A stretch of 64,000 nucleotides of DNA from an uncultured Candidatus Saccharibacteria bacterium (GTDB lineage: Bacteria; Patescibacteriota; Saccharimonadia; Saccharimonadales; UBA4665). The notes beneath the pieces were generated by a model, which saw only the letters and a program-made list of their open reading frames with translations, was not told the origin of the DNA and did not search any database. The first letter of the stretch is position 1, and each line of letters starts with the position of its first letter. Location: NCBI GenBank assembly GCA_964499935.1, contig CAZCMS010000001.1, forward strand, positions 674,452 through 738,451, read 5' to 3'. A program made the position numbers and the translations under genes. Shown piece by piece: positions 30,703 through 63,427 of the stretch.

Positions 30703-30759
30703 TGCAGTTTCGTCGTTTACGACTCGTCAGTATAGCTTATATGTAATCTATAGACTGCT
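30703..30759 (-). ncRNA. Type III hammerhead ribozyme (copy 4, divergent helices)
   Basis: The minus strand reads GCAGU-C/UAUAG-12 nt-CUAUA/CUGACGA/GUCG-UAAA-CGAC/GAA/ACUGC. All core positions, G10.1-C11.1, A15.1-U16.1 and a GUC cleavage triplet are present. Confidence 0.8.
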
Positions 30760-30903
30760 AGGGAAGGGGTGTGATAGCCAAAAGGCTATTGATTCACACT
30801 CCCTCCCGGAGTTTTACTGGTTAACTCCACCAGAATCGATTTGCACGAATCGTGCCACCCTTCGATTAAAAGGTGTTACCTGAATTGACCGTAAACGATC
30901 AGA

Positions 30904-31146
30904 TCAGCCGTTCATCACCTTGGTGGTGACTTGAACAACCGAGTTGGGTTCGAGAACCTCATCCAGCTGGGCCTCACGACCGTTCACCTGGACCATCAGA
31001 CCTTGCTTGACCCTAACGTTCGCACAAGCGAGCGCATTAGCAACGGTCATGTCAGACGCATAGTCCAACTGATGGAGATCACCACCGAGCACAGCAACCT
31101 GCACCCAGCTCGGAGCTTCCTCGGCCACAACGATATCCGTAGACAT
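30904..31146 (-). CDS. Ubiquitin-like beta-grasp protein (ThiS/MoaD-like), C-terminal Gly
   Basis: 80 aa. VQVNGREAQLDEVLEPNSVVQV resembles ThiS/MoaD. Ends KVMNG-stop. GAGGAG RBS. Last gene of the E2-JAB-E1 operon. Confidence 0.65.
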   Translation of the reverse strand: MSTDIVVAEEAPSWVQVAVLGGDLHQLDYASDMTVANALACANVRVKQGLMVQVNGREAQLDEVLEPNSVVQVTTKVMNG

Positions 31147-31173
31147 ATCTACTTCACTACTCCTCTGTATTGA

Positions 31174-31842
31174 TCAGCGACTGAACAATTGTGCTTCTCG
31201 CACATGTACATCGATGTACGACTTGAGCTCCATATCTCGCGCAAATCGTGTCAACTGAGCAATCATGTGCCCAGCCAATACTACCGGCGGATGGATCACG
31301 GTACGCGCTGCGCACGGCAAAGGCGCACCCTCTCCATCAGGAAAAAGCCAATCCTTCTCGTAGGTGTCCACCGCATCCATATCCAGAGGGTTCAGCGCAA
31401 GCAATGTCATTTGCTCGCCACCAATCCGACCGTCAAGGTACAAAGGAACATCCGGGTTGAACTTGACTGACCCCCAAATATCGCATCGAGCCTGCATACT
31501 GTCTACACCGCTGATGACAACACCGCTGAGCGGGGTTTCTGCTGTCACAAATTCCTGGTGTGGAACAATGCTGCACTCAGACTCTCTGTAAGACTCCAGC
31601 ATTTCTGCTGCAGCCTCCACCTTGGGCCTACCAACATCGGTGCGGGAATAGATCAACTGCGCTGGCACATTGTGCGGCTCCACATAGTCCAAGTCCCACA
31701 AATGCAGCTCGCCACGAAGGCCGAGCTTCACCAACGGGAGCACCACAGCGCTACCGATTCCGCCGACACCAATCACATGGACAGGCCAGGTGAACTTACT
31801 CGGGTCGAAGATATCCGTCTGACCAGAATAGTCAGCAATCAC
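31174..31842 (-). CDS. ThiF/MoeB-type E1-like adenylating enzyme
   Basis: Rossmann motif IGVGGIGS, plus DLDYVEPHN and GVDSMQAR motifs. GTG start 7 nt after the JAB stop and behind GAGGTGA; the longer track ORF overlaps the JAB gene. Confidence 0.8.
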   Translation of the reverse strand: MIADYSGQTDIFDPSKFTWPVHVIGVGGIGSAVVLPLVKLGLRGELHLWDLDYVEPHNVPAQLIYSRTDVGRPKVEAAAEMLESYRESECSIVPHQEFVTAETPLSGVVISGVDSMQARCDIWGSVKFNPDVPLYLDGRIGGEQMTLLALNPLDMDAVDTYEKDWLFPDGEGAPLPCAARTVIHPPVVLAGHMIAQLTRFARDMELKSYIDVHVREAQLFSR

Positions 31843-31849
31843 AATTACT

Positions 31850-32479
31850 TCACCTCTCGATCTGAAGATTCGTAGGGTCGTATGGTACCGCATCAGCTGA
31901 AGCGCGAGGCTCCAAAGGAACGGTACGAAGTCGCCCAAAAAAACCCATCCCCTGGCTACGCACCTTGAGACGAATCTCGTCGGCGGTGCTGTCAAGCAAG
32001 CCTTCGTCGAACACTGTCACAATCTCGGGTATCACATCAATCTCGACCCGAAAAGGCTCGAAAATGTCCAAGCGACAGCGAAACTCGCCACGCTTGTTGA
32101 CAACCAGACTGATCAGCCAATCTCCAGGCCAGCGCTCAATATTCGCCGTATCGGTAGGGGAGAAATAGGACTCCATATTGACATGACTATGCCACTGGAA
32201 CTTGATAGATCCAGGATTCCCCGTACCGCTCAGCACCATCTCGTGAATGAAATGGGTCAGTGCATCATGGTCCACCTCAGCGTGTCCGGGCGAAGCCACT
32301 TGGTCCAAAATGAACACATCCTTCACACGGATGATGTCATCACGCACCTCCACCAAGCCAAATCCGTTGATCTCGGTCGGGCAATTGATGACGTATGCCA
32401 TCATCTTCTGCCAATCCTGAAACGAAATCTGCACTCGGGGGATACGAATCACTGCGGGGCCTGCCAAATTGACCGACAT
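31850..32479 (-). CDS. JAB/MPN (JAMM) metallopeptidase
   Basis: 209 aa with upstream Glu (TEINGFG) and the full JAMM motif HSHVNMESYFSPTD (HxHx7SxxD). Confidence 0.85.
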   Translation of the reverse strand: MSVNLAGPAVIRIPRVQISFQDWQKMMAYVINCPTEINGFGLVEVRDDIIRVKDVFILDQVASPGHAEVDHDALTHFIHEMVLSGTGNPGSIKFQWHSHVNMESYFSPTDTANIERWPGDWLISLVVNKRGEFRCRLDIFEPFRVEIDVIPEIVTVFDEGLLDSTADEIRLKVRSQGMGFFGRLRTVPLEPRASADAVPYDPTNLQIER

Positions 32480-33925
32480 CTACTTCATCTCCTCTTTATA
32501 CACGTGGAATGCTTGCAAAACATCTTTCTGATGCTCGGGGTTAACCGAACATAGACATTCAACTATCAAAGCCATCGCCTCAACATACTGCGCCTTGGCA
32601 AGGTGTTCATTGACGACTCTCTCCCGATTACCAAAACAAAACGCTCCGGTAGAGAGTCGATATACCGGGTAGCCACCTCTCCAGCTGCTCTTCACACCTG
32701 ACCGTAGCTCTTTTGCCGTTACCGTCAAGGTGTCGGCGCCAAGATCTACCTGCCAATCACCCAGGTCGTACGCTACCCCACTGTATTCATTGATGGCTCG
32801 CACGATGAGACGGATGCGATTGTTCACAACCTGCACTGCCAAAACTCCAGGCAGAGACATGATGCGATCAAATTCACCTCCAATATTCATCTCGAACAGT
32901 TGCTCGTTGGTTTCTTCGATAGCTCGCTCCAGGATCTGCTGCTGACTCGTCAAGTCATTTATCTCACCTTGCTGGCTTTTAACTTGCTCAGCGAGTGATC
33001 GCAAGACCTCGCGACCCCGCTTTACTGCCAAAACAACTTGCTTATGAGCCTCGATTCGATTCTTTTGCGCACTTTCTTGTCGCATTTCTACGTATACTGC
33101 ACGAGCACTATTAGGCGAGCTGGCATACGTCCGACTCACAGCAGGCCGCACCTCCGACGTTGAGTCTCCTCCCCCAACCAGAACATCTACTGGATTATGT
33201 CCATAGAAGTCAGGGGGCACCCACTCATCAGGTGGCGTCCACTCATCCCTTGGCTGGTGTTGCACGTCTCTTGCGCCTGGCTCCATCCTGGCTTGAAGTG
33301 GAGGATCCCAGCGAAGCAATAGCCCGCTCACAATCATGCTCAACCACCAAAAGGGGCCAAACATAAGCGTGACAACAAAGGGCCACACGTATCGCCAGGG
33401 CAAATCTGCCAATCGATGCTGCTGCTGTTCGTCCCGAAGATCAACCATATAGGCTATCAACGTTACTAGGCTAAAGAGCAGCCACATAACCAACAGTCCT
33501 GGATCAAAATACACAGCCGTTATAAAAGGCTTGAGACTGCTTTTTGTAAGGCCTAGCTTTAGTGGCTCACCTGTCTTGGCGACTTGCTTCAGCTGCCTAA
33601 GTTCCTTGGAATCTGAATCGAAAGGCTCCTCCTTATTGAGCTTGGCACTCAAATCCTGAAGACTCAAGACTTGTGTTGCCATCTGCATGCGTTTGCCACG
33701 TGTTTCTTCACTGACATCTTTTACATGCTCTTTGTTAGAGAGCATGATTTGAGCCAGTTTTTGGTTATTTCCCACGTTGTGGTTGGTGACCAAAACAATA
33801 CCGCCAGCGATAGCGATAGCAATCACACTCAATACGAGCGCAGCAATAAACATCAACGCTATCGATTCTCCGATATTGCGATCGATGAAGGTACCAAATC
33901 GCAACGGTGTCTCACGACGCGTCAT
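32480..33925 (-). CDS. Membrane-anchored coiled-coil protein with putative E2 (UBC-like) C-terminal domain
   Basis: 481 aa with TM helices near residues 20-45, 145-165 and 180-205, a Pro/Trp-rich linker, and a heptad-like region. The C-terminus has a four-strand pattern, then YPVYRLSTGAFCFGN (resembling HPN-x-G-x-IC-L of E2s) and a helix. Its stop directly abuts the JAB start. Confidence 0.45.
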   Translation of the reverse strand: MTRRETPLRFGTFIDRNIGESIALMFIAALVLSVIAIAIAGGIVLVTNHNVGNNQKLAQIMLSNKEHVKDVSEETRGKRMQMATQVLSLQDLSAKLNKEEPFDSDSKELRQLKQVAKTGEPLKLGLTKSSLKPFITAVYFDPGLLVMWLLFSLVTLIAYMVDLRDEQQQHRLADLPWRYVWPFVVTLMFGPFWWLSMIVSGLLLRWDPPLQARMEPGARDVQHQPRDEWTPPDEWVPPDFYGHNPVDVLVGGGDSTSEVRPAVSRTYASSPNSARAVYVEMRQESAQKNRIEAHKQVVLAVKRGREVLRSLAEQVKSQQGEINDLTSQQQILERAIEETNEQLFEMNIGGEFDRIMSLPGVLAVQVVNNRIRLIVRAINEYSGVAYDLGDWQVDLGADTLTVTAKELRSGVKSSWRGGYPVYRLSTGAFCFGNRERVVNEHLAKAQYVEAMALIVECLCSVNPEHQKDVLQAFHVYKEEMK

Positions 33926-33944
33926 CAGAATTCTCCCTTGTATA

Positions 33945-33994
33945 GTTTACTTCCAGTTTCAAATCTCGCTAAAGGTCTAAAACTGGAAGTAAAC
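33945..33994. repeat. Perfect 15-bp inverted repeat (cassette A 5' hairpin)
   Basis: GTTTACTTCCAGTTT (33945-33959) and AAACTGGAAGTAAAC (33980-33994), about 20 nt upstream of the operon start codon. Confidence 0.8.
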
Positions 33995-34217
33995 CGCATA
34001 CACAATTCAGGTAAATTATTAAAATACAAAGACACAATATCAACCATAAAAGGTCAATCTTACTCCTTGAATCTTATATTTAAATATAAGCACAAAATAT
34101 ACATTTAGTCAATTAGGTCGTATGATGAAACTATTCACCAATAGACGCCTTGAAATAAAATATACATACATAGGTATTAACTTTGGATAAATTAAGATTT
34201 ATAGGATAATACAGTCA

Positions 34218-35678
34218 ATGACAGGATCATTAGAGTATGATATTCCGACAGTTCTCATTACGGGATTAATCTTTGGCGTTGACGTTATTATTCGACTTGC
34301 GCTACTTTTCTATATTCCACGCAATCGGAAACCGACCTCAGCAATAGCGTGGCTGTTTGCAATTGTTGTTATTCCCATCTTTGCGACTATTCTTTTCTTC
34401 GTCATCGGTCGCCGAAGCCTATCCAAGCAACGTATAGCCAAACAAGTCCATATCAACGAACTCTACCAACGCTACAATCGCGGACTGCGACGATCCCAGC
34501 TCAACAGCAATGTTCCAGAAAAATATACCGCAGCAGCAAAACTGAGCGAAGAACTCGCATACTTGGCGCCAACAGGACACAACAATATCAATCTTATAGG
34601 TGGCTACAACACAATCATCGAACATATGACGGCTGCAGTATCAAGAGCAGAAAAATACATATACCTCGAATTTTTTGCGATGGCGCTCGATAAAACCACG
34701 GAACCATTTTTTGTCGCACTAGAGGACGCCAGAAAAAGGGGAGTAGAGGTATACGTACTTTTTGACTATCTCGGGTCACGCAAATACCCCAGATACAGAG
34801 CGATGAAAAAACGCTTGACTGCAATGGGAGTAGAGTGGCATTCAATGTTAAGAATTAGCATACTGCCGGGTAAATATAACCGTCCGGATCTCCGTAATCA
34901 CCGCAAAATCCTCGTTATAGACAACACTGATGCCTATCTTGGCTCTCTCAACCTTATTGACAAGACGTACCATCGCAGAGATGATATTAGTTACGCTGAG
35001 CTGACCGCCCACCTCGAAGGACCAGTAGTCAATGAGGCTGCAGCCGTGTTTGCGAGCGACTGGTATGCCGAAACAGATACAGTATTACATCACTTTACAA
35101 CGAATTCACAAAAACACCCCAAAGGAACATCCGTTGCTCAGATGTTGCCAAGCGGGCCCGGCTACCCATACCGCAACAACCTGAAGGTATTTGTAGAAGC
35201 TTTGCACGCTGCAAAGAAATCAATTTACATATCAAGTCCATATTTTGTGCCAGATGAATCATTGCTCGCAGCATTAACATCTGCTGCTATTCGTGGAGTA
35301 CGTGTTTGTGTGTTGAACTCCGAAGCCATGGATCAGTGGATGGTAGGGCACGCTCAAAGATCATACTATGAACAACTTATGGAATCGGGAATAGAAATTT
35401 GGCTATACAAAAAACCACAATTACTACATTCAAAATACATGATAATTGATGATGATTTGGGCATCATTGGCTCCAGCAACCTAGACATCCGCTCGTTTGA
35501 ACTTAACCTCGAAAGTAGCGTAGTATTTTACGATACAAAAGTAGCCAAAAAGCTCACAAAGCATTTTTTAAGCGACATTAATAACAGCCGGCAAATAGAG
35601 CTTACAAGTTGGCGCAAGCGCCCACGTCGCAAACAGTTCCTTGATAGCATTGCACGGCTTACTTCGGCACTACAATAA
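34218..35678 (+). CDS. cls: Cardiolipin synthase
   Basis: 486 aa with two N-terminal TM helices and two PLD HKD motifs (HRKILVID, HSKYMIIDD). Confidence 0.9.
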   Translation: MTGSLEYDIPTVLITGLIFGVDVIIRLALLFYIPRNRKPTSAIAWLFAIVVIPIFATILFFVIGRRSLSKQRIAKQVHINELYQRYNRGLRRSQLNSNVPEKYTAAAKLSEELAYLAPTGHNNINLIGGYNTIIEHMTAAVSRAEKYIYLEFFAMALDKTTEPFFVALEDARKRGVEVYVLFDYLGSRKYPRYRAMKKRLTAMGVEWHSMLRISILPGKYNRPDLRNHRKILVIDNTDAYLGSLNLIDKTYHRRDDISYAELTAHLEGPVVNEAAAVFASDWYAETDTVLHHFTTNSQKHPKGTSVAQMLPSGPGYPYRNNLKVFVEALHAAKKSIYISSPYFVPDESLLAALTSAAIRGVRVCVLNSEAMDQWMVGHAQRSYYEQLMESGIEIWLYKKPQLLHSKYMIIDDDLGIIGSSNLDIRSFELNLESSVVFYDTKVAKKLTKHFLSDINNSRQIELTSWRKRPRRKQFLDSIARLTSALQ

Positions 35679-35711
35679 GCACTTCGTCATATTACACGCG
35701 TAACAATATAT

Positions 35712-36614
35712 TTATGATCTATCGATACTGACTTTTGGCAATATATCAAGTGGTTGCTGATTCATGATAAGCTCCAACCCAGTATTTATAACTCGGCGTA
35801 CATTGTGCATCTGGAACGCAATATCATCTTCAAGCGGAATAGGCCCGTCAACACTGCGTGGCGAAATATATAGACCATGGGCAGCATCCTTTACTACAGG
35901 TGTGCGTTGTCGCAACATACTAGCTTCTTCCGCAGGTAGCGTAGCATGCCACTCATCATGCCAACCCTTTACGCAGTCTGGTGACCCTGTATTCCAATCG
36001 TGTTCGGGAGCAAATAGACCAGCCTGGCCTTGCGCAACTCTTTCGCGCAGTCGTGCACCCAAACTTTCTGCATTGTTCATATCTTTGAAATATTGAGGAT
36101 CAATATCTGCAAAACTTTCGGTATACTCGCTGTAATCCAACGCACCCTCAGGTAATGCAACAACTCTCATCAAACTATTATCCATGAAGCGCTTTGCGAT
36201 CGATTGTGGCTGAGCAATAGTAGAACGAGGCGAAGGTAGCGGTGGAGCAATCGAAACCAGCCCCACTGGTCGCTCATCCGCATGACGCTCCATAACATTC
36301 ATTGCTGCAACAGTCCCAATACAGTGCGGTATCAATAGCACAGGAGAAGCTTCGGGAAGGGTAGCTATATCATCCTCAAGGACCGTAGCCTGAAGACTTG
36401 GGTGTCTTATTTTTTGCACACCGTCTCTGTCTAGATACATACCCTCAATTACTGAATACCCCAGTTCACGCCGTGACAATTCCTGAGCCAGAAGTCGAAG
36501 AATAATTGTTGACTGCATGCCTCCACCGCCACCAGCAACCAAATACACATGAGGCATCTCACGCTCTGTTGCGTTCATTTGATGAAGATGTTCTTGAGGC
36601 CCTAATTCAGTCAT
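35712..36614 (-). CDS. Hypothetical protein (possible alpha/beta-fold)
   Basis: 300-aa ORF with no clear catalytic motif. Somewhat GC-richer than its neighbours. Confidence 0.4.
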   Translation of the reverse strand: MTELGPQEHLHQMNATEREMPHVYLVAGGGGGMQSTIILRLLAQELSRRELGYSVIEGMYLDRDGVQKIRHPSLQATVLEDDIATLPEASPVLLIPHCIGTVAAMNVMERHADERPVGLVSIAPPLPSPRSTIAQPQSIAKRFMDNSLMRVVALPEGALDYSEYTESFADIDPQYFKDMNNAESLGARLRERVAQGQAGLFAPEHDWNTGSPDCVKGWHDEWHATLPAEEASMLRQRTPVVKDAAHGLYISPRSVDGPIPLEDDIAFQMHNVRRVINTGLELIMNQQPLDILPKVSIDRS

Positions 36615-36702
36615 ATGTGGAACATTAATTTTATCTTAAAAAGTAATTTATGCATTATAGAACATTGTGAGTTGAAAGTCCAAATGCTATAGTGACTCCA
36701 AT

Positions 36703-37305: not shown

Positions 37306-37364
37306 AGCATAAAAGCGTCAGAGCTTTAGTGCGTGATATGTAGATATACTCGTCAAAACCTTGA

Positions 37365-38381: not shown

Positions 38382-38536
38382 TTTTTATTTTATTATTATT
38401 CTAATGATTATTATAAATAACCCTCTTTTCCGTGTCAAATCAACATCACGTAAGCCTACGTGAAGTAGAATTTAGTCCTGCTAGAAAACCTAAAGTTTTA
38501 TTGCTTTTGGCATAAACCTTTAGGTTGATCTTAGCG

Positions 38537-39109: not shown

Positions 39110-39193
39110 TTAGTATACCCCACCCCGCACCCATCACCTCTTTGCACGCAAGGAAATATTTACATAAACATATATTTATGATATAATGTAAGG

Positions 39194-40530: not shown

Positions 40531-40665
40531 ATGAAGGGTAAAATGGACAAAATGAGTGGCAAAGCTAAAAAAACCGCAGGAAAAATCACCGATGATAAAG
40601 AGCTAGAAGCTAGAGGTAAAATGCAAGAAACCGCAGGAAAAGTTAAAGAAAAAACAGTTCGTTGA
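40531..40665 (+). CDS. CsbD-family stress protein (44 aa)
   Basis: Hand translation gives MKGKMDKMSGKAKKTAGKITDDKELEARGKMQETAGKVKEKTVR, behind RBS GGAGAAG. Typical CsbD repeat pattern. Below the ORF-track cutoff. Confidence 0.7.
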   Translation: MKGKMDKMSGKAKKTAGKITDDKELEARGKMQETAGKVKEKTVR

Positions 40666-40755
40666 CGAAAATTCAATTTTCTTGTATGATGTTACCTACG
40701 CAATGTAGATAGTAATCCGTTGCCGTATCTTGATAAGCAAAACATAGTTCGTATG

Positions 40756-40805
40756 AAGCGAGGGACAATGATAAAATCCACCGATTTTATAACTGTCCCT
40801 CGCTT
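40756..40805. repeat. Nested inverted repeat (cassette B 5' hairpin)
   Basis: 12-bp perfect arms AAGCGAGGGACA / TGTCCCTCGCTT enclosing a second stem ATAAAAT / ATTTTAT. Confidence 0.75.
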
Positions 40806-40864: not shown

Positions 40865-41251
40865 ATGCTGACAGTAGACAGACAGGAAACGGCAGAGGTA
40901 GCACATACGTGTGGCCTGACCGGTGACGCGAGTCTCATGATTCGCCTCGAGAGCGATGAGGTTCACAAGGAGCGACTGCAAGCTATGCTTCCGACGCTGC
41001 TGACCAAAGACGTTGCTCGACAGCTGAGTAGGGAAGTCTCGATCAATCGTCCTTGCGACCCGAGGAGGACGCCCAAAAATAGGAGTGGAGATCGATCAAT
41101 ATCGGTCAGTGTCGCTGGAGTTCAAGTCTCGCTACATATTGAAGTAACGACGCGGAAGCCTCAGGACTTCGAACCTTTCATTTGGGCAACGCGTGAGTTG
41201 TTGGTGCCGATTCTCGCGGGTCAGCTGACCGTATATAAGAAAATGCTCTAG
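40865..41251 (+). CDS. Hypothetical protein (GC-rich cassette B)
   Basis: 128-aa ORF with RBS AAGGAA 5 nt upstream. Higher G+C than the flanks. No recognisable family. Confidence 0.5.
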   Translation: MLTVDRQETAEVAHTCGLTGDASLMIRLESDEVHKERLQAMLPTLLTKDVARQLSREVSINRPCDPRRTPKNRSGDRSISVSVAGVQVSLHIEVTTRKPQDFEPFIWATRELLVPILAGQLTVYKKML

Positions 41252-41313
41252 TCAATAACAGAAGTAACCCAGTGGCGAAAGTGACTCGCAACAGCATATT
41301 CACGCTCAGCTCG

Positions 41314-41340
41314 CACCGTCTGGTGTCTGTTTTCGTGTTT
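41314..41340 (+). terminator. Short terminator-like hairpin plus GT-rich tract
   Basis: CACC-GTCT-GGTG followed by TCTGTTTTCGTGTTTT. Confidence 0.4.
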
Positions 41341-41354
41341 TGTTTTGCTTGTCA

Positions 41355-41414
41355 TTTTCGCTCTACAAATTAAATAGTTGTACTGATGAGTCCTCAGGAG
41401 GACGAAAGCGAAAG
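41355..41414 (+). ncRNA. Type III hammerhead ribozyme (copy 1)
   Basis: UUUUCGCU-C/UACAA-9 nt-UUGUA/CUGAUGA/GUCC-UCAGGA-GGAC/GAA/AGCGAAAG. An 8-bp helix III, 5-bp helix I and 4-bp helix II, with every invariant core base present. Confidence 0.85.
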
Positions 41415-48407: not shown

Positions 48408-49193
48408 TTAGAAGTCGTATAGTTTTTCATTGTATGACTCAAGCACTAACTTGCCGTCTTGACCAAGGTCGGGCATACCTCTATATACGGTTATACCGCA
48501 GTTAACCGGTTTATAATTCTCATCAAGCTCCAGGAATTCACTTACACCTAACCGCTCAATATTAGCTCTCATGGCAAGAATATTCAGATGATGTGTCATC
48601 ATAAAAACATTTTGGCCAACGTAATCACGTGTCATTGTACCTAAAATTGATCTGTTACGCTCGCGTACATCCGGTACACTTTCGCCTTGTGGGTAACGAT
48701 ACCAATACGGGCCTTCTTGATCACGTAATGCATCTTGTTCTGGGTGAAGAGTACGGAAAATTCTCCAGTCACTGTACAACAAAGCCAAGCCGTGCTCTTG
48801 CTCACGCAGTCTTTCATCTTCCACAACCTTGACCTCGCCAAACTCCGGCCAGCCAATAGCAATGCCTGCGAGCGTTTGGTACACACGATCATACGGAGAT
48901 GCAAGTACAACGTCAGGCAATGCGATACGCTCTTTTAGTCGCGCACCCGTCACTTCAGCTTGCCTTTTACCCAACTCGGTAATTCCTGTTGCATGATCAC
49001 CGTTTCCCAAGACCAAATCGTCACGCTCAAGAAGCCCACGGGCAAGCGCACGGGCAGTTTCGGGATCTACTTTACGTTCTTCAAAAGCTTTTTTAAATTC
49101 AAGATACTGAGGGTCGGCTTCCTTTTTTGCCTTAAGACGGTTATAGCTTGATTCTGCATGTCTGCCAATTGTTATAGTATTCGGCCATTTCAC
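48408..49193 (-). CDS. Histidine phosphatase (phosphoglycerate mutase-like) family protein
   Basis: N-terminal RHAES (RHG-type) motif and a downstream His region (MTHH). Confidence 0.75.
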   Translation of the reverse strand: MKWPNTITIGRHAESSYNRLKAKKEADPQYLEFKKAFEERKVDPETARALARGLLERDDLVLGNGDHATGITELGKRQAEVTGARLKERIALPDVVLASPYDRVYQTLAGIAIGWPEFGEVKVVEDERLREQEHGLALLYSDWRIFRTLHPEQDALRDQEGPYWYRYPQGESVPDVRERNRSILGTMTRDYVGQNVFMMTHHLNILAMRANIERLGVSEFLELDENYKPVNCGITVYRGMPDLGQDGKLVLESYNEKLYDF

Positions 49194-54480: not shown

Positions 54481-54502
54481 CCTCCATCTAATGTAACGTT
54501 TG

Positions 54503-55447: not shown

Positions 55448-55593
55448 GGAGTTAGTTAGGTTGTTGCTATTGATTATACATTCTTCTTACCATAATTAAT
55501 CATAAATTGACTAATATATAAATTAATACTATGATAAAATACCCTGTTGAATCTACATTCCAGTGGTGTACCTTGACAATCAGACAGTTATAG

Positions 55594-55653
55594 ACACGAG
55601 ATAAGATAGTGCTTCTTTAATTATTTTTTAAACAGCGCTACCTTATCTTGTGT
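55594..55653. repeat. Long inverted repeat (cassette C 5' hairpin)
   Basis: ACACGAGATAAG...CTTATCTTGTGT arms (one G-T pair) with partially paired extension. Related in sequence to 62157-62212. Confidence 0.7.
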
Positions 55654-55737
55654 CCTATGTGCAAAGAAAACATAGAACCGAAGTGTGCCCTAAGGGCATA
55701 CAACTGGCAAATAGTCAGAGATTAGGGGAAAGATAGT

Positions 55738-56205
55738 ATGCTGTCGTGTGATTGCCAGAAGGATAAGAGAGTTCACTACCCCAAGCCCAGTATGTGCGAC
55801 TCCCTGGCTCATGTCCTGTCAAAAGGTCACGTCATGGACGTGAAATACAGGAAGCGCATTGTATTGCTTCGTGGTAGCGAAGCCCCTTTTGCGGAGACCG
55901 TCGTCAACCTGAGTTATGCTGACGAGGGAATCTTCAAAGAACCCAGGTGGTATCTCGACCGTGACCCCAGCTTGACACCTGAAGGCGTGATCGCAGTTCG
56001 CGTGGAACGTGTTACAGAGATGAAGCTCTGCATTCCTTCTATGAGTAGGAATTTTGTAACGACCGTGCTGCCTGAGCCCAGTCGCGTATCACCTACGTTC
56101 TTCATCGATGGAACGTTGTGTCGCAATGGCGCTCGGCCTACCACCGTTCGAGATCGATACGGGAACGAGCACAAGTACGACCCCAAAAAGATGCGGGTCG
56201 TCTAG
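55738..56205 (+). CDS. Hypothetical protein (GC-rich cassette C)
   Basis: 155-aa ORF behind RBS AGGGGAAAG. GC-rich, with no recognisable family. Confidence 0.5.
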   Translation: MLSCDCQKDKRVHYPKPSMCDSLAHVLSKGHVMDVKYRKRIVLLRGSEAPFAETVVNLSYADEGIFKEPRWYLDRDPSLTPEGVIAVRVERVTEMKLCIPSMSRNFVTTVLPEPSRVSPTFFIDGTLCRNGARPTTVRDRYGNEHKYDPKKMRVV

Positions 56206-56290
56206 CTCTCCTAGCAGAGTTCGAGCAGCCCATTTCTCAAAATCACCAACCAGAAAGGATCCTCGAGCGAACTAGCAACAGACATAACTT

Positions 56291-56310
56291 CACGGTCTTT
56301 CCGTGTTTTC
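56291..56310 (+). terminator. Rho-independent terminator-like hairpin
   Basis: CACGG-TCTTT-CCGTG followed by TTTTC. Confidence 0.5.
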
Positions 56311-56341
56311 TTATACCCTACTGTACTGTCTGTTTGTCATG

Positions 56342-56399
56342 TTTCGCTCTGCAAATAAAAGAGTTGTACTGATGAGTCCTAGAGAGGACGAAAGCGATA
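56342..56399 (+). ncRNA. Type III hammerhead ribozyme (copy 2)
   Basis: UCGCU-C/UGCAA-9 nt-UUGUA/CUGAUGA/GUCC-UAGAGA-GGAC/GAA/AGCGA. Helix I has a G-U where copy 1 has A-U. Confidence 0.8.
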
Positions 56400-56461
56400 A
56401 CATATATCAAGACCAGACTATTCTTGCTGCTTATGCTATATTAAGTGTAGGTAACATTGGA

Positions 56462-57352: not shown

Positions 57353-57361
57353 GAGGTAGCT

Positions 57362-59320
57362 ATGCTAGGAAGACTTACATTAGATGCGATACCACACGAT
57401 ATAGTGGTACTGGGAGCAGGGTTGTCGATGATTGGCATGGGCCTCACTGCCGTAGCGATTGTAACGTATCTAAAAAAATGGAAATGGCTCTGGAAAAACT
57501 GGCTCACCTCGCTCGACCCAAAGAAAATTGGCATTATGTATGCAGTAGTTGCAGGCCTCATGCTCCTTCGTGGCGCTGCCGATGCATTTATGATGCGCAT
57601 ACAACAGGTTGTAGGAGTAGGTGATTCACAAGGCTTTTTATCCTCCGATCACTTCCAACAAGTCTTTTCGGCCCACGGTACTATCATGATTTTCTTTGTA
57701 GCTATGGGTTTTATATTTGCCCTTATGAACCTTATCGTACCACTTCAGATTGGCGCACGAGATGTTGCATTTCCGTTCTTAAATTCGGTTAGTTTCTGGC
57801 TGTTTGTAGCAGGTATGGCCCTTATGAATTTGTCGCTCATTGTTGGTGAATTTTCGGCAGCTGGCTGGCTGGCATATCCGCCGTTATCAGGGCTGGAATA
57901 CAGTCCTGGCGTAGGCGTCGATTATTGGATATGGGCATTACAGATCGCAGGTATTGGTAGCTTGCTTTCTGGGGTTAACTTCTTTGCCACTATTATTAAA
58001 ATGCGCGCACCTGGTATGACACTTATGAAAATGCCGATTTTTGTCTGGAGTGTACTTGGGAGCGTTATTCTTATCATGGCTGCATTCCCAATCTTAACTG
58101 CAACACTTGCAATGCTCTCCTTGGATCGCTTAATGGGTATGCATTTCTTCACCTCGGACTTAGGGGGCAATCCTATGCTATACGTTAACCTTATATGGGC
58201 CTGGGGACACCCTGAGGTATACATTCTTATACTTCCACTGTTCGGCGTTTTTTCAGAAATTGTTGCCACATTCTCTCGCAAACGCTTGTTTGGCTATACC
58301 TCGATGGTTGTAGCGCTCATGGCAATTACATTCTTATCGTTCACTGTATGGCTCCACCACTTCTTCACCATGGGAGGAGGTGCGAATGTGAATGCATTCT
58401 TTGGCATAATGACCATGATTATTGCCATACCAACAGGAGTGAAAGTCTTTAATTGGCTCTTTACTATGTACCGCGGACGAGTACAATTCAAAACACCAAT
58501 GCTGTGGTTTATGGGTTTTGTTACCACCTTTACTATTGGTGGTGTAACCGGCGTACTTATGTCGGTGCCAGCAATCGATTTCCAGATGCACAACAGCCTC
58601 TTTTTGGTCGCACATTTCCACAATATGATCATTGGTGGAGTAGTGTTTGGCATCTTTGCTGCACTTACGTATTGGTGGCCGAAGTTCACTGGATTCACGC
58701 TCAATGAAAGAATTGGCACCTACGCATTTTGGTGCTGGGAAATCGGTTTCTTGCTCGCATTCTTGCCTCTGTATGCGCTTGGTATGATGGGCGCCACCCG
58801 ACGGCTTGATCACTACGATGCGTCATTAGGTTGGCAATGGCTGTTTATTGTAGCAGCAGTAGGTGTAGTAGTTATTGGAATGGGCATTGCATTACAGCTT
58901 TGGCAAATTACATATAGTATTCTAAAACGAAACGAAAACAGAGTAGGCAATGATCCATGGAATGGTCGCACGCTCGAATGGGCAACTACCTCGCCTCCAC
59001 AGCATTACAATTTCCCGGTCACACCCAAAGTTTCAACCCGTGATGCATGGTGGGAGATAAAGCACAGCAAAAACAAACCTCATAAAACCAGTGAGGATAT
59101 TATTATGCCAAATAATACAGGGGCAGGGGTGTTTATTGCAGGATTCAGCCTCGTAATCGGTTTTGCGCTCATTTGGCATATCTGGTGGCTGGCAATTGTG
59201 GGACTTATTGGTGGGCTTGCAACAGTGATAATCAGACTATCCAACGACGATATCGAACACGTAATTCCTGCAAAAGAGATTGCGCATGAAGAAGCAGCGA
59301 TCAAGGGGGCAAAGGCATGA
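57362..59320 (+). CDS. cyoB: Heme-copper quinol oxidase subunit I
   Basis: 652 aa with conserved [10 protein letters not shown] and HHFFTMG motifs. Confidence 0.95.
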
Positions 59321-59907
59321 GTAATCACATGGATCATAACCATCAGCAAGCAACCACAGAAAAATCCTTGTTTGGCTTCTGGACCTACCTAATGACCGAC
59401 TTGATACTCTTTGCGACACTCTTTGCTACCTACGTCGTACTTCGCAATAATACGTACGACGGACCATCGGGCAAAGATATTTTTGACATGCCGTTTGTAC
59501 TAACTGAAACGATGATATTGTTGGCTAGCAGCTTTACAATTGGTATCGCTATGCTTGCTGCATACAAAAACCAGGTACGCACTGCACTTGGCTTCCTCTT
59601 CATAACCTTCTTGCTTGGTGCTGCGTTCTTGGGAATGGAATTATATGAATTCCAGCACCTTGTACACGAAGGCTATGGCTGGAAGGCAAGCGCATTCCTG
59701 TCGGCGTTCTTTACGCTTGTAGGTACACACGGACTGCACATTCTTGCAGGTCTTATTTGGTCGGTTGTTTTGATGGTGCAAATTGCTAAACGAAAACTCA
59801 CCGTTCATACAACCCGACGCCTTGCACTCTTTAGCTTGTTTTGGCATTTCTTAGATATCGTATGGATATTTATTTTTACCATCGTTTACTTACAGGGGGT
59901 ACTGTAA
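59317..59907 (+). CDS. cyoC: Quinol oxidase subunit III
   Basis: 196 aa with 5 TM helices and [10 protein letters not shown] near the C-terminus. Overlaps cyoB by 4 nt. Confidence 0.9.
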
Positions 59908-60287
59908 TGAGTAAAAACAATACTACACAACAAAACGCTCAATACCACGGCAGTGTACACACCTATATTATAGGTTTTGTTGGCTCGGTGATCTTTACGC
60001 TTGCTGCATATTATATGGTGGTCAGCGAACGCTTTAGCTACACTACCGCGCTTACAGCAATCACTATTCTTGCGGTTGCACAATTGCTCATACAATTAGT
60101 ATTCTTCTTGCACCTTGGTAAAGAGTCAAAACCACGCTGGAATGCGATGGTATTTTCATTCATGCTACTCGTTGTTGGTATCGTAGTAATTGGCTCAATA
60201 TGGGTTATGAATAATCTGCATTACAACATGATGCCATCGCAAGAAATAGACAAAAAGATGGAGTACGAAAGCCAAAAAGGCTTCTAG
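59907..60287 (+). CDS. cyoD: Quinol oxidase subunit IV
   Basis: 126 aa with 3 TM helices. The internal ATG overlaps the cyoC stop (TAATG). Confidence 0.75.
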   Translation: MSKNNTTQQNAQYHGSVHTYIIGFVGSVIFTLAAYYMVVSERFSYTTALTAITILAVAQLLIQLVFFLHLGKESKPRWNAMVFSFMLLVVGIVVIGSIWVMNNLHYNMMPSQEIDKKMEYESQKGF

Positions 60288-60292
60288 CAAGC

Positions 60293-61156
60293 ATGTTGCG
60301 TCTGCGAGAATATTATTTATTAACCAAGCCTGGTATTATTCGTGGCAACCTTATGACCGCTGCTGCTGGGTTCTTTTTTGCTAGCCAAGGAAACTTTGAT
60401 TGGTGGCTAGGCGCAGCGGTCTTATCAGGAACTGCGCTCGTCATTGCATCGGGGTGTGTTTTCAATAACTACCTTGATCGTGGTATTGACAAAAAAATGG
60501 CACGCACCCAGGGTAGAGTGCTCGTAACAGGTGCTATCTCTGCAAAAGCTGCGCTAACATTTGCCACAACTTTAGCCACTATCGGATTCGTAATATTGGC
60601 ACTGTACACAAATTACCTTACTGTTTTTATAGGCATAGTTGGGATTGTAGATTACGTTATTTTATATGGCTACGCCAAGCGCCACTCTGTCCACAGTACA
60701 CTCATTGGCGGAGTTTCTGGGTCTACAGCGCTGGTGGCAGGATATGTTGCTGTTACAGGCAGTCTTGATGTCGTAGCGCTGTTACTGTTTCTAATCATGG
60801 CGTTTTGGCAGATGCCACATTTTTATGCGATTGGCGTGTATCGAAAAAAAGATTACACTGCAGCCGGCTTACCTATTTTACCTGTAAAAAAGGGTGTTCT
60901 AGATACTAAAAGACAAACGCTTGTCTATATTATCGGCTACATTATCACTGCTGGTCTGCTTGGTGTATTGGGCTATACCGGCTATACATATCTTCTCATC
61001 ATGACCGCACTTGGGCTGTGGTGGCTTATTGTCGCACTGCAAGGATTCAAGCCTAAAACCGATGACATAAAGTGGGGTCATAAGATATTTGGTATATCGC
61101 TTTTGATACTTATGGCGTTCTCTTTGCTGATTTCACTCGATTGGCTGCTGCCATAA
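60293..61156 (+). CDS. cyoE: Protoheme IX farnesyltransferase (heme O synthase)
   Basis: 287 aa UbiA-family protein. Motifs NNYLDRGIDKKMARTQGR and WQMPHF. Confidence 0.9.
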   Translation: MLRLREYYLLTKPGIIRGNLMTAAAGFFFASQGNFDWWLGAAVLSGTALVIASGCVFNNYLDRGIDKKMARTQGRVLVTGAISAKAALTFATTLATIGFVILALYTNYLTVFIGIVGIVDYVILYGYAKRHSVHSTLIGGVSGSTALVAGYVAVTGSLDVVALLLFLIMAFWQMPHFYAIGVYRKKDYTAAGLPILPVKKGVLDTKRQTLVYIIGYIITAGLLGVLGYTGYTYLLIMTALGLWWLIVALQGFKPKTDDIKWGHKIFGISLLILMAFSLLISLDWLLP

Positions 61157-61168
61157 TAGTCTTGTTTT

Positions 61169-61225
61169 TTTCGCTTTCGTCCTCTCTAGGACTCATCAGT
61201 ACAACTAAATATTTGTAGAGCGAAT
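61169..61225 (-). ncRNA. Type III hammerhead ribozyme (copy 3)
   Basis: The minus strand reads AUUCGCU-C/UACAA-8 nt-UUGUA/CUGAUGA/GUCC-UAGAGA-GGAC/GAA/AGCGAA. It lies 13 nt from the cyoE stop on the opposite strand. Confidence 0.85.
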
Positions 61226-61243
61226 ATGACAAACAGACAAAAG

Positions 61244-61263
61244 AAAAACACACGGAAACCGTG
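61244..61263 (-). terminator. Rho-independent terminator-like hairpin
   Basis: Minus strand CACGG-TTT-CCGTG followed by TGTTTTT, downstream of the 61323-62078 gene. Confidence 0.5.
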
Positions 61264-61322
61264 CGAATTAGAGAAAGCCTAGCGTCATACTCGCAGTAAC
61301 GCATATTGCTAAACCCAAAGAG

Positions 61323-62078
61323 TCAGCGAACCGTGTATAGATAGGGCTGTACGCTATAAGGCGTCGTAACGATAGCTTCGCTATCGTTCCAGCCAACATA
61401 TTGCCTCAGTGCGCTCATCACCGTATCGTGATGTGCGATTCGATCGTGCTCTCGATTAGCGACAATCCACACGTCGCGACCAGAGATCCTCACAGAACGG
61501 ATAGCCCCTGTGTCCGCCAAAAGCAAGCGCAAGCGCACCCACCCAAGACCACCGGCCTCGTACTGCACATTCGGCGCAATCTCCGAAGCCATGTCGGGGC
61601 CGAGCTCCAGGGAAAACCGGTACTGTCTCGTGTAACCCGAGAACAACGAACCAGGGTAGTCGACCCAGCTGATACTCCGAGCGACCTCAGAGACCTCTGC
61701 CTTCGTATAACAGTACGACTGTGTCGGTTGCTGTGGCAGTCGATCCATAATCAAGAGCGCGTTGACGCGATCAGCGATCGCACGAAGATACTCAAGTGCT
61801 TCTTCGCACTCGAATACATCGTTCGCAATCGTTACGCGGAGCGCTTGTGCGTTGACTTCGATCGTGTCGACGTGAGCAAGCTCCTTGAAGAGCATACGAA
61901 CAAACATCAACGGCTGGCGATCCATGAGAGCCATATGAGCCGGATCCTGCATATCGACACGCCGAATCTTACACGGCGTACTGTCGGGCGGAAAAATTCC
62001 CTGAGGAACGAAAAAACTCACCTCATTTCTGGCAATCTCGATCAGAATCTTCACGGTATTATTGGTCATAACAGACAT
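61323..62078 (-). CDS. Hypothetical protein (GC-rich cassette D)
   Basis: ORF with start set at the internal ATG (MSVMTNN) behind GGAGAAAG. GC-rich, with no recognisable family. Confidence 0.5.
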   Translation of the reverse strand: MSVMTNNTVKILIEIARNEVSFFVPQGIFPPDSTPCKIRRVDMQDPAHMALMDRQPLMFVRMLFKELAHVDTIEVNAQALRVTIANDVFECEEALEYLRAIADRVNALLIMDRLPQQPTQSYCYTKAEVSEVARSISWVDYPGSLFSGYTRQYRFSLELGPDMASEIAPNVQYEAGGLGWVRLRLLLADTGAIRSVRISGRDVWIVANREHDRIAHHDTVMSALRQYVGWNDSEAIVTTPYSVQPYLYTVR

Positions 62079-62156
62079 ACTGTTCTTTCTCCAAACCTGT
62101 GGCACAATACCCTCCTACAACTGTAGGAGCTGTGTTTTTCTGTAACACATCACAAG

Positions 62157-62212
62157 ATAAGGTATCGTCACTTAAGTTAATTATCATAAAAACTTAAGCA
62201 GCCATACCTTAC
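62157..62212. repeat. Long inverted repeat (cassette D 5' hairpin)
   Basis: AAGGTAT / ATACCTT and CTTAAGT / ACTTAAG arms. On the minus strand, ACGAGGTAAGGTAT...GATACCTTATCTTGTG parallels cassette C. Confidence 0.7.
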
Positions 62213-62347
62213 CTCGTATTGGTGCTATCTGATTGTCAATATACATTCTTGGAGTTACCTCAACAAAGAATATGTATATTATATACTATAATAAATGTAA
62301 CAGCAAAAAAGCGTGTACTTTATATTCATAAGCGCTATAATATAGAT

Positions 62348-62599
62348 ATGATCTTAGTACTTCACATCACTATTGCGCTCGCAAGCATCATATACACCTC
62401 CATGACATATATTTCACCAACGAAAGGCAAGGTTCAAACCTCATCCGGCCTAGCTGCATTAACACTACTAACAGGCACTGTGCTCGTTATCAGCACACAC
62501 AGTGCTCTACTGCAGGCATGCGCTACCGGAGTCACTTATCTCGCTATAGTATCGGTAGGCATTATTGCAGCGGACCGTAAACTCAAACGTTCTCATTAG
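62348..62599 (+). CDS. Small hypothetical membrane protein (83 aa)
   Basis: Internal ATG directly after TATAAT. Three hydrophobic segments. Confidence 0.4.
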   Translation: MILVLHITIALASIIYTSMTYISPTKGKVQTSSGLAALTLLTGTVLVISTHSALLQACATGVTYLAIVSVGIIAADRKLKRSH

Positions 62600-62816
62600 A
62601 ACTTGCATAAAATACCTATCTCTATCACCTGCGGTAAAAAAGATACGCATTCTATACGCTCAATATAGGGAAAAACGACAAGCAGGCACAAATACACAGA
62701 GAGAAAACACACCAGGATAGGCGAGAATCAAACATGTTATCATGCCTACTTGTTGCTTGCCCTAGCAACGAGCAACCTTTTGCACAAAGGTTAGCCAAAG
62801 CTAATACCAAGGACGA

Positions 62817-63290
62817 TCAGCTCAAGCTGATGGCGATTCCCTGACCACCCAGGAGGAGACGCTGGTAAAGACCTTGCTGCGACTCATCGCCACGCGTCGT
62901 GATACCCGTAGTCGACTTGACGTCTTCGCCAACCTGCTGCAGAAGCCCCATATAGAGCCACGCCTGCACCACGAAATAGGCATTCTCGAAAGGGATAGCG
63001 AACTCGCCGATAGAGACATATACCTCCGCGACAAACTCGGTCTCCATAATGACCAACGAGAAATCACGCGAATCAGACACAGACTGATCGGACATGTTCG
63101 GGGAGCAGTCATGCGAAATGCAGTGCAATTCGTTGGCGAGCCCCTCAGCAATCTCGGAGAAAACCTCCTCCAAACGATCCTTCGTAAACCGACCCGAGGC
63201 CGACGTAGACAGCTTGATCGAAACCTCACCACCATGACCAAACTTGATGGTGGTCTCCGCGAAAACCTGCTCCGGTACCGAAGTAGACAT
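62817..63290 (-). CDS. Hypothetical acidic protein (GC-rich cassette E)
   Basis: 157-aa ORF behind the strong RBS GGGAGGAGAG. Competing frames on both strands lack an RBS. Confidence 0.55.
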   Translation of the reverse strand: MSTSVPEQVFAETTIKFGHGGEVSIKLSTSASGRFTKDRLEEVFSEIAEGLANELHCISHDCSPNMSDQSVSDSRDFSLVIMETEFVAEVYVSIGEFAIPFENAYFVVQAWLYMGLLQQVGEDVKSTTGITTRGDESQQGLYQRLLLGGQGIAISLS

Positions 63291-63372
63291 ATGTTCTCTC
63301 CTCCCTATAAGGGAATCGTTTCTCCATTACCACCCAAATGGGCGCCAGATTCTTGTGTTTTTCGTACTGCTA

Positions 63373-63427
63373 CACGAGAATGAGGAAAGAACCCAGAAAA
63401 CTTGCTGAATTTTTTCCTCGTCTCGTG
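63373..63427. repeat. Long inverted repeat (cassette E 5' hairpin)
   Basis: CACGAGAATGAGGAAA / TTTCCTCGTCTCGTG arms with a loop of about 24 nt, 83 nt upstream of the 63290 start. Confidence 0.7.

Follow-up and report, generated by a model that had tools for sequence, protein, structure and literature searches.

Gene cassettes with compact hammerhead ribozymes at their 3' ends in a Saccharibacteria genome

The window analysed here is a stretch of 64,000 nucleotides from the genome of an uncultured Candidatus Saccharibacteria bacterium (assembly GCA_964499935.1, contig CAZCMS010000001.1, positions 674,452 to 738,451). It contains five gene cassettes, A to E, dispersed over 33 kb among housekeeping genes, in mixed orientations and not in a prophage. 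Four of them end in a compact type III hammerhead ribozyme and the fifth, E, in a decayed one. Judging from sequence comparison, these cassettes are probably autonomous, insulated expression units, in which the ribozyme would make a hairpin-protected mRNA 3' end and insulate the neighbouring genes. The main argument for a ribozyme that makes the 3' end is that hairpin plus hammerhead and hairpin plus U-tract occur as alternative ends of one operon, that of cassette A.

Hammerhead ribozymes of the window

A preliminary description of this DNA had placed type III hammerheads at four sites, and all four were recovered. In gathering mode, Rfam detected no hammerhead in the window, its single match being a tRNA-Gln. 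A permissive scan of positions 30000-64000, in E-value mode, gave full-length matches to RF00008 (Hammerhead_3) for A (30702-30760 (-), 44.4 bits, E=1e-6), C (56342-56399 (+), 37.2 bits, E=1e-4), D (61171-61223 (-), 30.8 bits, E=7.5e-3) and B (41358-41411 (+), 24.1 bits, E=0.56). The covariance-model comparison proposed in the preliminary description thus located every ribozyme, with none of them above the gathering score. A descriptor scan demanding CUGANGA, a helix II, GAAA, an in-register helix III with A15.1-U16.1, a non-G H17 and a capped helix I returned precisely four hits in the 64 kb, A to D, and 0 in 50 shuffles.

All four copies satisfy the core (CUGANGA, GAAA, non-G H17, G10.1-C11.1 and A15.1-U16.1), and the three-way junction is the minimum-free-energy fold for A, B and D. 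The layout is that of type III, with helices I and II capped by loops and helix III open. As had been described, the hammerheads of B, C and D are near-identical, while helices I, II and III of A differ and yet all pair; the four C17 positions given earlier are also correct by direct counting (Table 1). In a contig of a ~98%-identical strain, L001, hammerhead D has the core CUGACGA instead of CUGAUGA, the change falling at the single free core position. The absence of a ribozyme core from cassette E, likewise reported before, is confirmed in the sequence. By the descriptor scan there is one hammerhead per cassette, exclusively at the 3' end, which is not the arrangement of a retrozyme or of a viroid-like circular RNA. 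We consider it very likely that the window ribozymes are genuine and under selection.

In L002 and L003, two independent metagenome contigs of this strain, the sequence stops inside hammerhead C (window ~56390), a pattern consistent with assemblies breaking at repeats, here the near-identical tails of B, C and D.

Alternative 3' ends of one operon

Seven further copies of the four-gene operon of cassette A were recovered (L205-L211), in neighbourhoods that differ between genomes. In L205, L209 and L210 the operon ends with a long hairpin that has no U-tract and directly precedes an intact hammerhead, all three stems of which differ from those of the window's copy; at these orthologous sites the ribozyme is thus kept while its stems covary. 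In L208 it ends with a hammerhead bearing large insertions, in L206 with a decayed hammerhead, and in L207 and L211 with a canonical hairpin and U-tract terminator and no ribozyme.

A second cassette, of two genes (130 and 199 aa), lies directly upstream of the A-type operon in L205 (4655-5863 (+)). Its GC3 (G+C content at third codon positions) is 0.76 and 0.84, against ~0.45 in the flanks, and it ends in a hairpin and in a hammerhead that is almost identical to the one of the adjoining operon. From this sequence, scaffolds look homogenised within a genome.

The same hammerhead class in metagenomes and phages

A search pattern comprising only the core, helix II and three helix I bases retrieved at least 120 metagenomic stretches and 44 IMG/VR phage contigs. 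The type III fold was completed by 69% of the real flanks versus 2% of shuffled flanks. Each position of stems I and III is occupied by 4-6 standard pair types in 101 distinct copies, a set pre-selected by a scan for CUGANGA, GAAA and a non-G H17; pair 10.1-11.1 is GC and pair 15.1-16.1 AU in all of them, and H17 is C in 76, A in 13 and U in 12. Only 1 of ~18 related copies passes the curated Rfam threshold; the short helix I and small loops depart from the viroid-trained model. Because the compact class escapes the standard Rfam thresholds, genomes of the candidate phyla radiation (CPR) probably contain more bacterial hammerheads than are counted.

Around 103 of these hammerheads, the nearest upstream open reading frame (ORF) lies on the ribozyme strand in a ratio of 73:12 (p=8e-12), whereas the strand of the downstream ORF (48:34) shows no significant bias. 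The hammerhead lies a median of 98 nt from the stop codon. The 60 nt directly 5' of the ribozyme fold with a median of -16.6 kcal/mol, compared with -12.6 kcal/mol in control windows (p=6e-6), and a stable hairpin ends at most 12 nt from the ribozyme in 64 of 112 loci, with a T-tract in 7 of the 64. In all, a compact hammerhead follows a same-strand gene and a hairpin in more than 100 metagenomic and phage loci. As far as its placement tells, the hammerhead is a 3'-end element of the upstream gene.

The genes that precede these ribozymes are mostly unannotated, 42 of 70 proteins being singletons. Searches of Pfam, PADLOC and PHROGs with 47 cargo proteins of other loci gave matches for about six, and ten phage cargo proteins that were searched had no match. 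One metagenome cargo protein (alignment A4) matches Pfam Tad4 (E=1.4e-15). Tad4 is a phage inhibitor of type I Thoeris, and the sequence match hints that some hammerhead cargo may be anti-defence genes. A family of ~300-340 aa recurs in the loci L212, L215, L230, L231, L232, L241, L244, L245, L249, L255 and L086, and in many phage contigs it lies immediately 5' of hairpin and hammerhead; it has the motifs EYPLF.GFE.D.SCG.EA.THVLPL and SPS.Y.CGGH and no Pfam or PHROG match.

A different object turned up in L155 (JGI12272J11983_1283690, 1-4342), which carries a tandem 1216-bp repeat, type III hammerheads in both polarities and a 686-aa ORF. Unrelated to the cassettes, it resembles a viroid-like or ambivirus-type circular RNA replicon.

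A conserved scaffold around variable cargo

The sole related species compared for cassette positions is represented by the contig L084, found through a single distant homolog of the protein of cassette D. This contig is syntenic with the window and shares 66-80% identity with it in housekeeping proteins. At matching positions it carries cassettes with orthologs of D (53% identity) and E (37%), a cassette at the C site and one further cassette, their genes having a GC3 of 0.55-0.63 against a background of 0.38-0.50. Intact hammerheads follow three L084 cassettes, one of them with wholly different stems I and III. Cassette E is without a ribozyme in both species and in the same decayed state, with only the hairpin and U-tract retained. 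Cassette positions are thus conserved between the two species, with no empty site in L084. A genome scan anchored on CyoA found distant relatives only (at most 56% identity), with no cassettes at the corresponding sites and one unrelated hammerhead, in L061.

The C site in L084 holds an unrelated gene of 146 aa. Aligned with the window, it is ~88% identical over promoter and leader, up to window position 55674; similarity is at random level over 55675-56288, a segment that includes a small hairpin, the ribosome-binding site (RBS), the coding sequence and the 3' untranslated region (UTR); and ~90% identity is regained from the terminator hairpin through the ribozyme. With the terminator hairpin lying beyond the replaced segment, the hammerhead is part of the conserved scaffold, not of the cargo. 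The suggestion that the ribozyme marks the cassette boundary is therefore not supported. More generally, UTR blocks are 70-95% identical between the window and L084, while coding sequences are ~35% (random level), ~60% and ~50% identical for C, D and E, respectively. What these alignments describe is a conserved UTR scaffold, with a cargo that is fast-evolving or swapped within it.

The sequence said to be common to the cassettes at their 5' and 3' ends is indeed shared among B to E. The 5' inverted repeats, first described with arms of 12-15 bp, are real, but they are longer (22-28 nt) and imperfect (78-91%). These leader hairpins end 20-84 nt upstream of the ATG, and a comparison of eight leaders revealed compensatory changes in 18 of 26 pairs. 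Of the 3' hairpins attributed to every cassette, those of B, C and D are weak, terminator-like hairpins of 5-7 bp with a T-tract, and that of A is a 14-bp hairpin without a T-tract that abuts the ribozyme.

Cassette genes have a G+C content of 0.50-0.54 and a GC3 of 0.52-0.62, most other ORFs having a GC3 of 0.31-0.45. They are the top GC3 outliers of the window, with an excess of ~0.2 over their neighbours, so that the G+C elevation noted at first sight is borne out by per-ORF GC and GC3 and by the GC profile.

At the strain level, identity is a mosaic, with 99.9% blocks beside blocks of 92-97% at LytR, AI-2E, LPG synthase and UbiA plus D, which argues that recombination is active. A His_Phos_1 histidine-phosphatase gene (48408-49193 (-)) is found in the window and in L002 and is missing from L001. 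In L084, a degenerate hammerhead-like sequence, CTGATGAGCTTAAAGGAGCAAAAGCGAG, lies at ~7795-7870 (+), directly 3' of a FAD-oxidase gene and upstream of the promoter of the next cassette; its GAAA has become AAAA.

Pairing between leader and tail

In cassettes B to E a conserved block, TTGACAAnCAG..., is complementary to the 3' tail of its own cassette. This block was rejected as a -35 box, there being no -10 box at a proper distance and better promoters ~60 nt upstream; since the best sigma70-like sites lie there, it probably falls within a leader of 170-200 nt. Pairing was assessed in 14 cassettes by an ungapped local helix score, compared with 300 shuffles; global duplex folding gave meaningless duplexes. 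In B the helix measures 21 nt and in the extra L084 cassette 22 nt; it is shorter in C (15 nt) and E (13-15 nt). The observed score was reached by 0/300 shuffles for r174 and by 17/300 for A (for B, C and E see Table 1). The cognate tail was the best of the 14 in 6 of the 14 cassettes, namely five of the nine of the B-E family and wA (tied with L205A).

The tail strand ends 0-4 nt 5' of the ribozyme in B, C, r174 and rD, and ~20 nt before the decayed remnant in E. The distal halves of the helix vary among cassettes with compensatory changes, and the two strands overlap neither the ribozyme nor the RBS. In cassette A, a perfect 12-nt match joins the leader and the 3'UTR, and it differs from the B-E helix. 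On the cassettes compared, the leader-tail helix is to be regarded as lineage-specific.

A proposed mode of action, and what weighs against it

Each cassette would have its own promoter, a structured leader of ~170-200 nt with a long hairpin, a GC3-rich cargo, a 3' hairpin and a compact hammerhead. RNA polymerase would read through the 3' hairpin and the ribozyme; the hammerhead would then fold and cut after C17, and the mature mRNA would carry a 2',3'-cyclic phosphate end a few nucleotides past the protective hairpin or closing helix. Such an end, lying next to a hairpin or helix, would shield the mRNA from 3' exonucleases, the 5' hairpins would protect the opposite end, and in the B-E family a single 13-22-bp helix would join the two mRNA ends after cleavage. 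Read-through RNA would be detached, thereby insulating the convergent (A, D) or downstream (B, C) genes. The ribozyme would stand in for the U-tract of an intrinsic terminator and, in B, C and D, would back up a weak one. The genes facing A and D are indeed convergent, and B and C are followed by same-strand genes with promoter-like sites of their own. That the ribozyme sets the mRNA 3' end and insulates the neighbours had been proposed at the outset; the upstream strand bias, the alternation with terminators and the convergent neighbours of A and D all point to it, by inference only.

Several observations weigh against this proposal. The promoters are assigned from consensus matches alone. 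Cassettes B, C and D carry a terminator-like hairpin and T-tract ~30 nt 5' of the ribozyme and, if this upstream terminator is efficient, the ribozyme will rarely be transcribed. All four window ribozymes (24.1-44.4 bits) score under the Rfam gathering threshold of 48.5 bits, and fast hammerhead cleavage at cellular Mg2+ needs loop-loop contacts, which the compact class may lack. With ungapped scoring, leader-tail complementarity is non-significant for wD, rC and rD, and by the local helix score the helix is absent from A-type orthologs and from L061; where present, the complementarity could equally be read as terminal inverted repeats in the DNA. Finally, the proposed mechanism leaves the GC3 excess unaccounted for, and this excess is smaller among the phage copies (median +0.03) and occurs also in L211, where the ribozyme is missing.

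A broader version, which we regard as possible but rather doubtful, is that CPR bacteria and some phages use "end-locked" mRNAs, in which a compact hammerhead replaces the U-tract and leaves a 2',3'-cyclic phosphate end beside a hairpin, this end is clamped to the leader by the covarying helix in the present lineage, and the GC3-rich body is more resistant to AU-directed RNases. If so, fast-evolving accessory, defence or anti-defence genes would have long-lived, insulated transcripts with swappable cargo, and bacterial hammerheads would be ribozyme terminators generally, which would explain the variability of the genes adjoining them.

Alternative explanations

It is unlikely, in our opinion, that the cassettes are instead mobile DNA, the ~15-22-bp leader and tail repeats being terminal inverted repeats and, with the hammerhead region, sites of recombination or transposition. 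Inverted repeats do bracket each B-E cassette, the cargo of site C has been replaced between species inside conserved flanks, the neighbourhoods of A-type operons vary by genome, and the mosaic strain comparison indicates active recombination. Moreover, hammerheads are near-identical within a genome (B, C and D in the window; X and A in L205) and differ between genomes, as expected of duplicated or converted scaffolds. The swap boundaries at site C (55674/55675 and 56288/56289), however, lie ~90 and ~40 nt inside the repeats and off the ribozyme too, and no direct repeats resembling target-site duplications were seen beside the repeats. The repeat pairs covary between cassettes, so that there is no single sequence for a protein to recognize. 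No transposase or integrase was found among the scanned part of the window ORFs, and cassette positions are conserved between the two species, with no empty site seen. We favour a closing helix at the RNA level, given the covariation of its strands, the position of the swap boundaries inside them and the lack of visible target-site duplications.

An equally improbable reading makes the hammerhead and the leader-tail helix a regulatory switch over ribozyme folding, translation or decay, or a device for processing the 5' end of the downstream mRNA. It would fit the position of the 3' helix strand, 0-4 nt from stem III, a conserved leader of ~190 nt that exceeds what a stabilizer needs, and the same-strand genes that follow B and C. 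There are also precedents, as pairing between their own 5' and 3' UTRs governs translation or decay of the Staphylococcus aureus icaR (PMC3868564) and Bacillus subtilis hbs (PMC5737220) mRNAs, and the cassette leader would likewise pair over a long range with its own 3'UTR. Unlike in icaR and hbs, the cassette helix adjoins a self-cleaving ribozyme, leaves the Shine-Dalgarno sequence free and recurs across a cassette family with covarying strands. Against a switch, the helix strands are clear of both ribozyme and RBS, the leader matches no known riboswitch or RNA family in Rfam, downstream genes have no strand association (48:34) and those facing A and D are convergent, while the genes downstream of B and C have promoter-like sites of their own past the ribozyme.

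The third alternative concerns the G+C content. In 23 of 29 metagenomic loci, the GC3 of the cargo is higher than that of its neighbours (median +0.12, Wilcoxon p=5e-5). Cargo GC3 also correlates with the background GC3 of the host (Spearman 0.63, slope ~1.1, offset ~+0.1), and this tracking of the host points to a process intrinsic to the units and away from a fixed high-GC donor. A strict coupling between hammerhead and GC3 excess was ruled out by L211, which has the excess and no ribozyme. The excess could reflect selection for RNase-resistant or stable coding RNA, or GC-biased gene conversion in recombination-prone cassettes. The recent import from a high-GC actinobacterial donor suggested in the preliminary description, with the flanking elements co-imported, is highly improbable and largely refuted: the GC3 of the cassettes does lie ~0.2 above that of neighbouring genes, the cargo proteins are orphans and the cargo of site C differs between species, but the cassettes at C to E are syntenic and GC3-rich in L084, D and E through orthologs in a species with 66-80% housekeeping identity, the 179-member family of the cassette A E1 has named members in Saccharibacteria or other CPR only, the A operon shows its excess in hosts with backgrounds from 0.38 to 0.52, and the slope against host GC3 is ~1.1. 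The GC3 of actinomycetes is, besides, far above the 0.52-0.62 of the cargo.

Relation to known systems

Bacterial and prophage hammerheads were described in 2011 as flanking single genes or short blocks of varying identity, and transcript processing was proposed as their role (Perreault et al. 2011, PMC3088659); a review of 2019 still counted the bacterial ones, of undefined function, among "functional orphans" (PMC6765202). The copies described here resemble those of Perreault et al. in their core and three-way junction, in their intergenic position among variable genes, in the gene-length mRNA processing that they would perform and in their occurrence in phages (the 44 IMG/VR contigs). They differ in that the window copies lie in a CPR chromosome among housekeeping genes, one per self-promoted unit and not in a prophage polycistron, and in that the compact class falls mostly below the Rfam threshold. 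Strict placement 3' of a hairpin, alternation with terminators, GC3 excess of the cargo, a scaffold with exchangeable cargo and a leader-tail helix were not found in PMC3088659 or PMC6765202. RiboJ and the reporters with a twister ribozyme in the 3'UTR (cited in PMC6765202) are similar in that a self-cleaving RNA defines transcript ends and uncouples units; these constructs are synthetic, whereas the cassettes would be a natural, evolutionarily conserved use. A literature search combining hammerheads with Saccharibacteria, Patescibacteria or candidate phyla radiation found nothing relevant. The earlier statement that no system with this layout had been described thus holds for the literature found, with the reservation that hammerheads flanking single prophage genes have been on record since 2011 (PMC3088659). 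Neither the ribozyme class nor its location beside genes is new; what appears to be new is the cassette architecture, the interchange with terminators, the GC offset of the cargo and the closing helix.

Like integron cassettes with their attC sites, the cassettes have variable, mostly orphan cargo between structured repeats whose sequence varies while pairing is kept. Unlike them, they have their own promoters, mixed orientations and dispersed positions, and their repeats span the whole cassette and not a 60-140-bp attC. A survey that was not exhaustive for intI showed neither an integrase nor attI.

There is also a likeness to the "morons" of phages, reportedly defined by Hendrix and colleagues as units that are transcribed independently, between a promoter and a terminator of their own, and that deviate in base composition: the cassettes, too, are single accessory genes with their own promoter and 3' end signal and a G+C content unlike that of their neighbours. 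They differ from morons in lying outside a prophage, in having a ribozyme in the 3' signal, in keeping their positions across species and in a GC offset that tracks the host.

The alternation at the end of the A operon, UTRs conserved beyond the proteins that they enclose and the covarying leader and tail amount to natural experiments on the role of bacterial hammerheads, a question open since 2011. The cassette design could also serve as a natural insulator or terminator part.

Cassette features and cargo genes

Table 1. Positions of the cassette features in the window
Cassette	Feature	Positions	Strand	Remarks
A	promoter candidate, sigma70-like TTGATA-17-AATAAT	34015..34043	-	consensus match only
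B	promoter candidate, sigma70-like TTGACG-17-TATGAT	40662..40690	+	consensus match only
C	promoter candidate, sigma70-like TTGACT-17-TATGAT	55507..55535	+	consensus match only; conserved in L084
E	promoter candidate, sigma70-like TTGACA-17-TAAAAT	63493..63521	-	11/12 consensus matches
A	5' leader hairpin	33945..33994	-	22-nt arms, 86% complementary
B	long 5' leader hairpin	40756..40805	+	23-nt arms, 91% complementary
C	long 5' leader hairpin	55593..55654	+	28-nt arms, 79% complementary
D	long 5' leader hairpin	62152..62217	-	27-nt arms, 78% complementary
E	long 5' leader hairpin	63370..63430	-	arms 10+18 nt
A	leader 12-mer TTACCTGAATTG	34003..34014	-	perfect complement of 30876-30887; score 28; cognate tail first
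A	3'UTR 12-mer CAATTCAGGTAA	30876..30887	-	complementary to leader 12-mer
B	helix 5' strand	40731..40751	+	21 nt; 0/300 shuffles; cognate tail first of 14
B	helix 3' strand	41334..41354	+	ends at hammerhead
C	helix 5' strand UGACAAUCAGACAGU	55574..55588	+	2/300 shuffles
C	helix 3' strand	56325..56339	+	local helix score
D	helix 5' strand UUGACAAUCAGAUAG	62225..62239	-	by eye; one U.U mismatch, one G.U pair
D	helix 3' strand UUGUCUGUUUGUCAU	61226..61240	-	sequence, by eye
E	helix 5' strand UGACAAGCAGGUAUA	63438..63452	-	11/300 shuffles; cognate tail first
E	helix 3' strand UGUGCCUGCUUGUCG	62676..62690	-	local helix score
A	gene 1	32480..33925	-	481-aa membrane/coiled-coil protein; C-terminal domain alpha-beta4-Cys430-alpha3
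A	gene 2	31850..32479	-	JAB/MPN-like, HSHxxxxxxxS..D motif
A	gene 3	31174..31842	-	ThiF/E1-like adenylyltransferase
A	gene 4	30904..31146	-	80-aa ubiquitin-like candidate, C-terminal ..NG
B	cargo	40865..41251	+	128-aa orphan, GC3 0.57
C	exchangeable segment	55675..56288	+	small pre-RBS hairpin, RBS, coding sequence, 3'UTR
C	cargo coding sequence	55738-56205	+	155-aa orphan, GC3 0.62; unrelated to L084 occupant
D	cargo	61323..62078	-	251-aa orphan, GC3 0.60
E	cargo	62817..63290	-	157-aa near-orphan
A	3' hairpin, 14 bp, without U-tract	30761..30807	-	ends 2 nt before hammerhead
B	terminator-like hairpin and T-rich tract	41313..41326	+	sequence
C	terminator-like hairpin and T-tract	56291..56305	+	sequence
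D	terminator-like hairpin and T-tract	61249..61265	-	sequence
A	hammerhead, type III	30702..30760	-	predicted cleavage 3' of C30753; Rfam, fold, descriptor scan
B	hammerhead, type III	41355..41414	+	predicted cleavage 3' of C41363; Rfam, fold, descriptor scan
C	hammerhead, type III	56342..56399	+	predicted cleavage 3' of C56349; Rfam, descriptor scan
D	hammerhead, type III	61170..61224	-	predicted cleavage 3' of C61218; Rfam, fold, descriptor scan
E	decayed hammerhead	62640..62675	-	stem-I-like hairpin and U-tract left; CUGANGA/GAAA core and helix II gone

The E1-like protein of cassette A matches ThiF (E=2e-18), and its closest solved structures are NEDD8 and ubiquitin E1 enzymes (NEDD8 E1, E=3e-11). 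It has 179 homologs, every named one from Saccharibacteria or other CPR. The product of gene 2 matches Prok-JAB with E=1.3e-4 and 22.3 bits against a Pfam cut-off of 25, the L205 ortholog of gene 4 has a weak SAMP2 match, and PADLOC gave weak E1-E2 and BilD matches for the cassette. In the 481-aa protein, Cys430 is invariant and lies in an alpha-beta4-loop-alpha3 domain modelled by AlphaFold with a pLDDT of ~80-87. A Foldseek search with this model returned nothing significant, RWD matches having E-values of 2-8, and sequence searches of the PDB with the 481-aa protein and with the D cargo gave nothing meaningful. The modelled C-terminal domain is conserved, its secondary-structure elements follow a UBC-like order, and it is possibly E2/RWD-like; since the fold search was non-significant, the label "E2" stays hypothetical. 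With a NEDD8/ubiquitin-type E1, a JAB-like protein and a candidate ubiquitin-like protein of ~80 aa, cassette A recalls the Bil/Bub systems, from which it differs in having no recognisable E2 and in belonging to a CPR-specific operon family. Annotated phage records contained no DNA like that of cassette C, and the E1 matched ThiF-like proteins there at 30% identity at best.

The cargo of B to E had no match in Pfam, PADLOC or PHROGs. That of D has two homologs among 5.8 billion proteins and, compared with its L084 ortholog, shows the codon-position pattern of a real, fast-evolving gene; for that of E, ten of 1.8 billion representatives matched. A repeat that giant proteins carry in up to 26 copies is weakly similar to residues 18-83 of protein E. 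Of the smaller proteins matched, two carry cadherin domains, a low-confidence lead to a beta-sandwich fold.

Other features of the window

A sixth cassette at 63734-64000 was considered and rejected, as this region holds a plus-strand nucleotidyltransferase-like gene with no visible scaffold. Divergent from cassette E, this GC-rich gene (~63786-64000 (+), continuing into L001 at ~18050-18700) has a strong RBS and the motif LFGDHVRD...DIDLVVI, and no shared leader or hammerhead was seen. The window also encodes CysRS, OtsAB, the cyoABCD oxidase, SOD and ABC transporters, and the nearest named relatives of its CyoA, at 54-56% identity, come from Saccharibacteria metagenome-assembled genomes. Apart from the cassettes, the sole GC-elevated block (GC 0.46-0.50, GC3 0.45-0.52) is a type IV secretion system region at 17491-25432 (-), which encodes a VirD4-like coupling protein of 871 aa, a VirB4/TraG-like ATPase of 615 aa and a VirB6/TrbL-plus-pilin protein of 497 aa.

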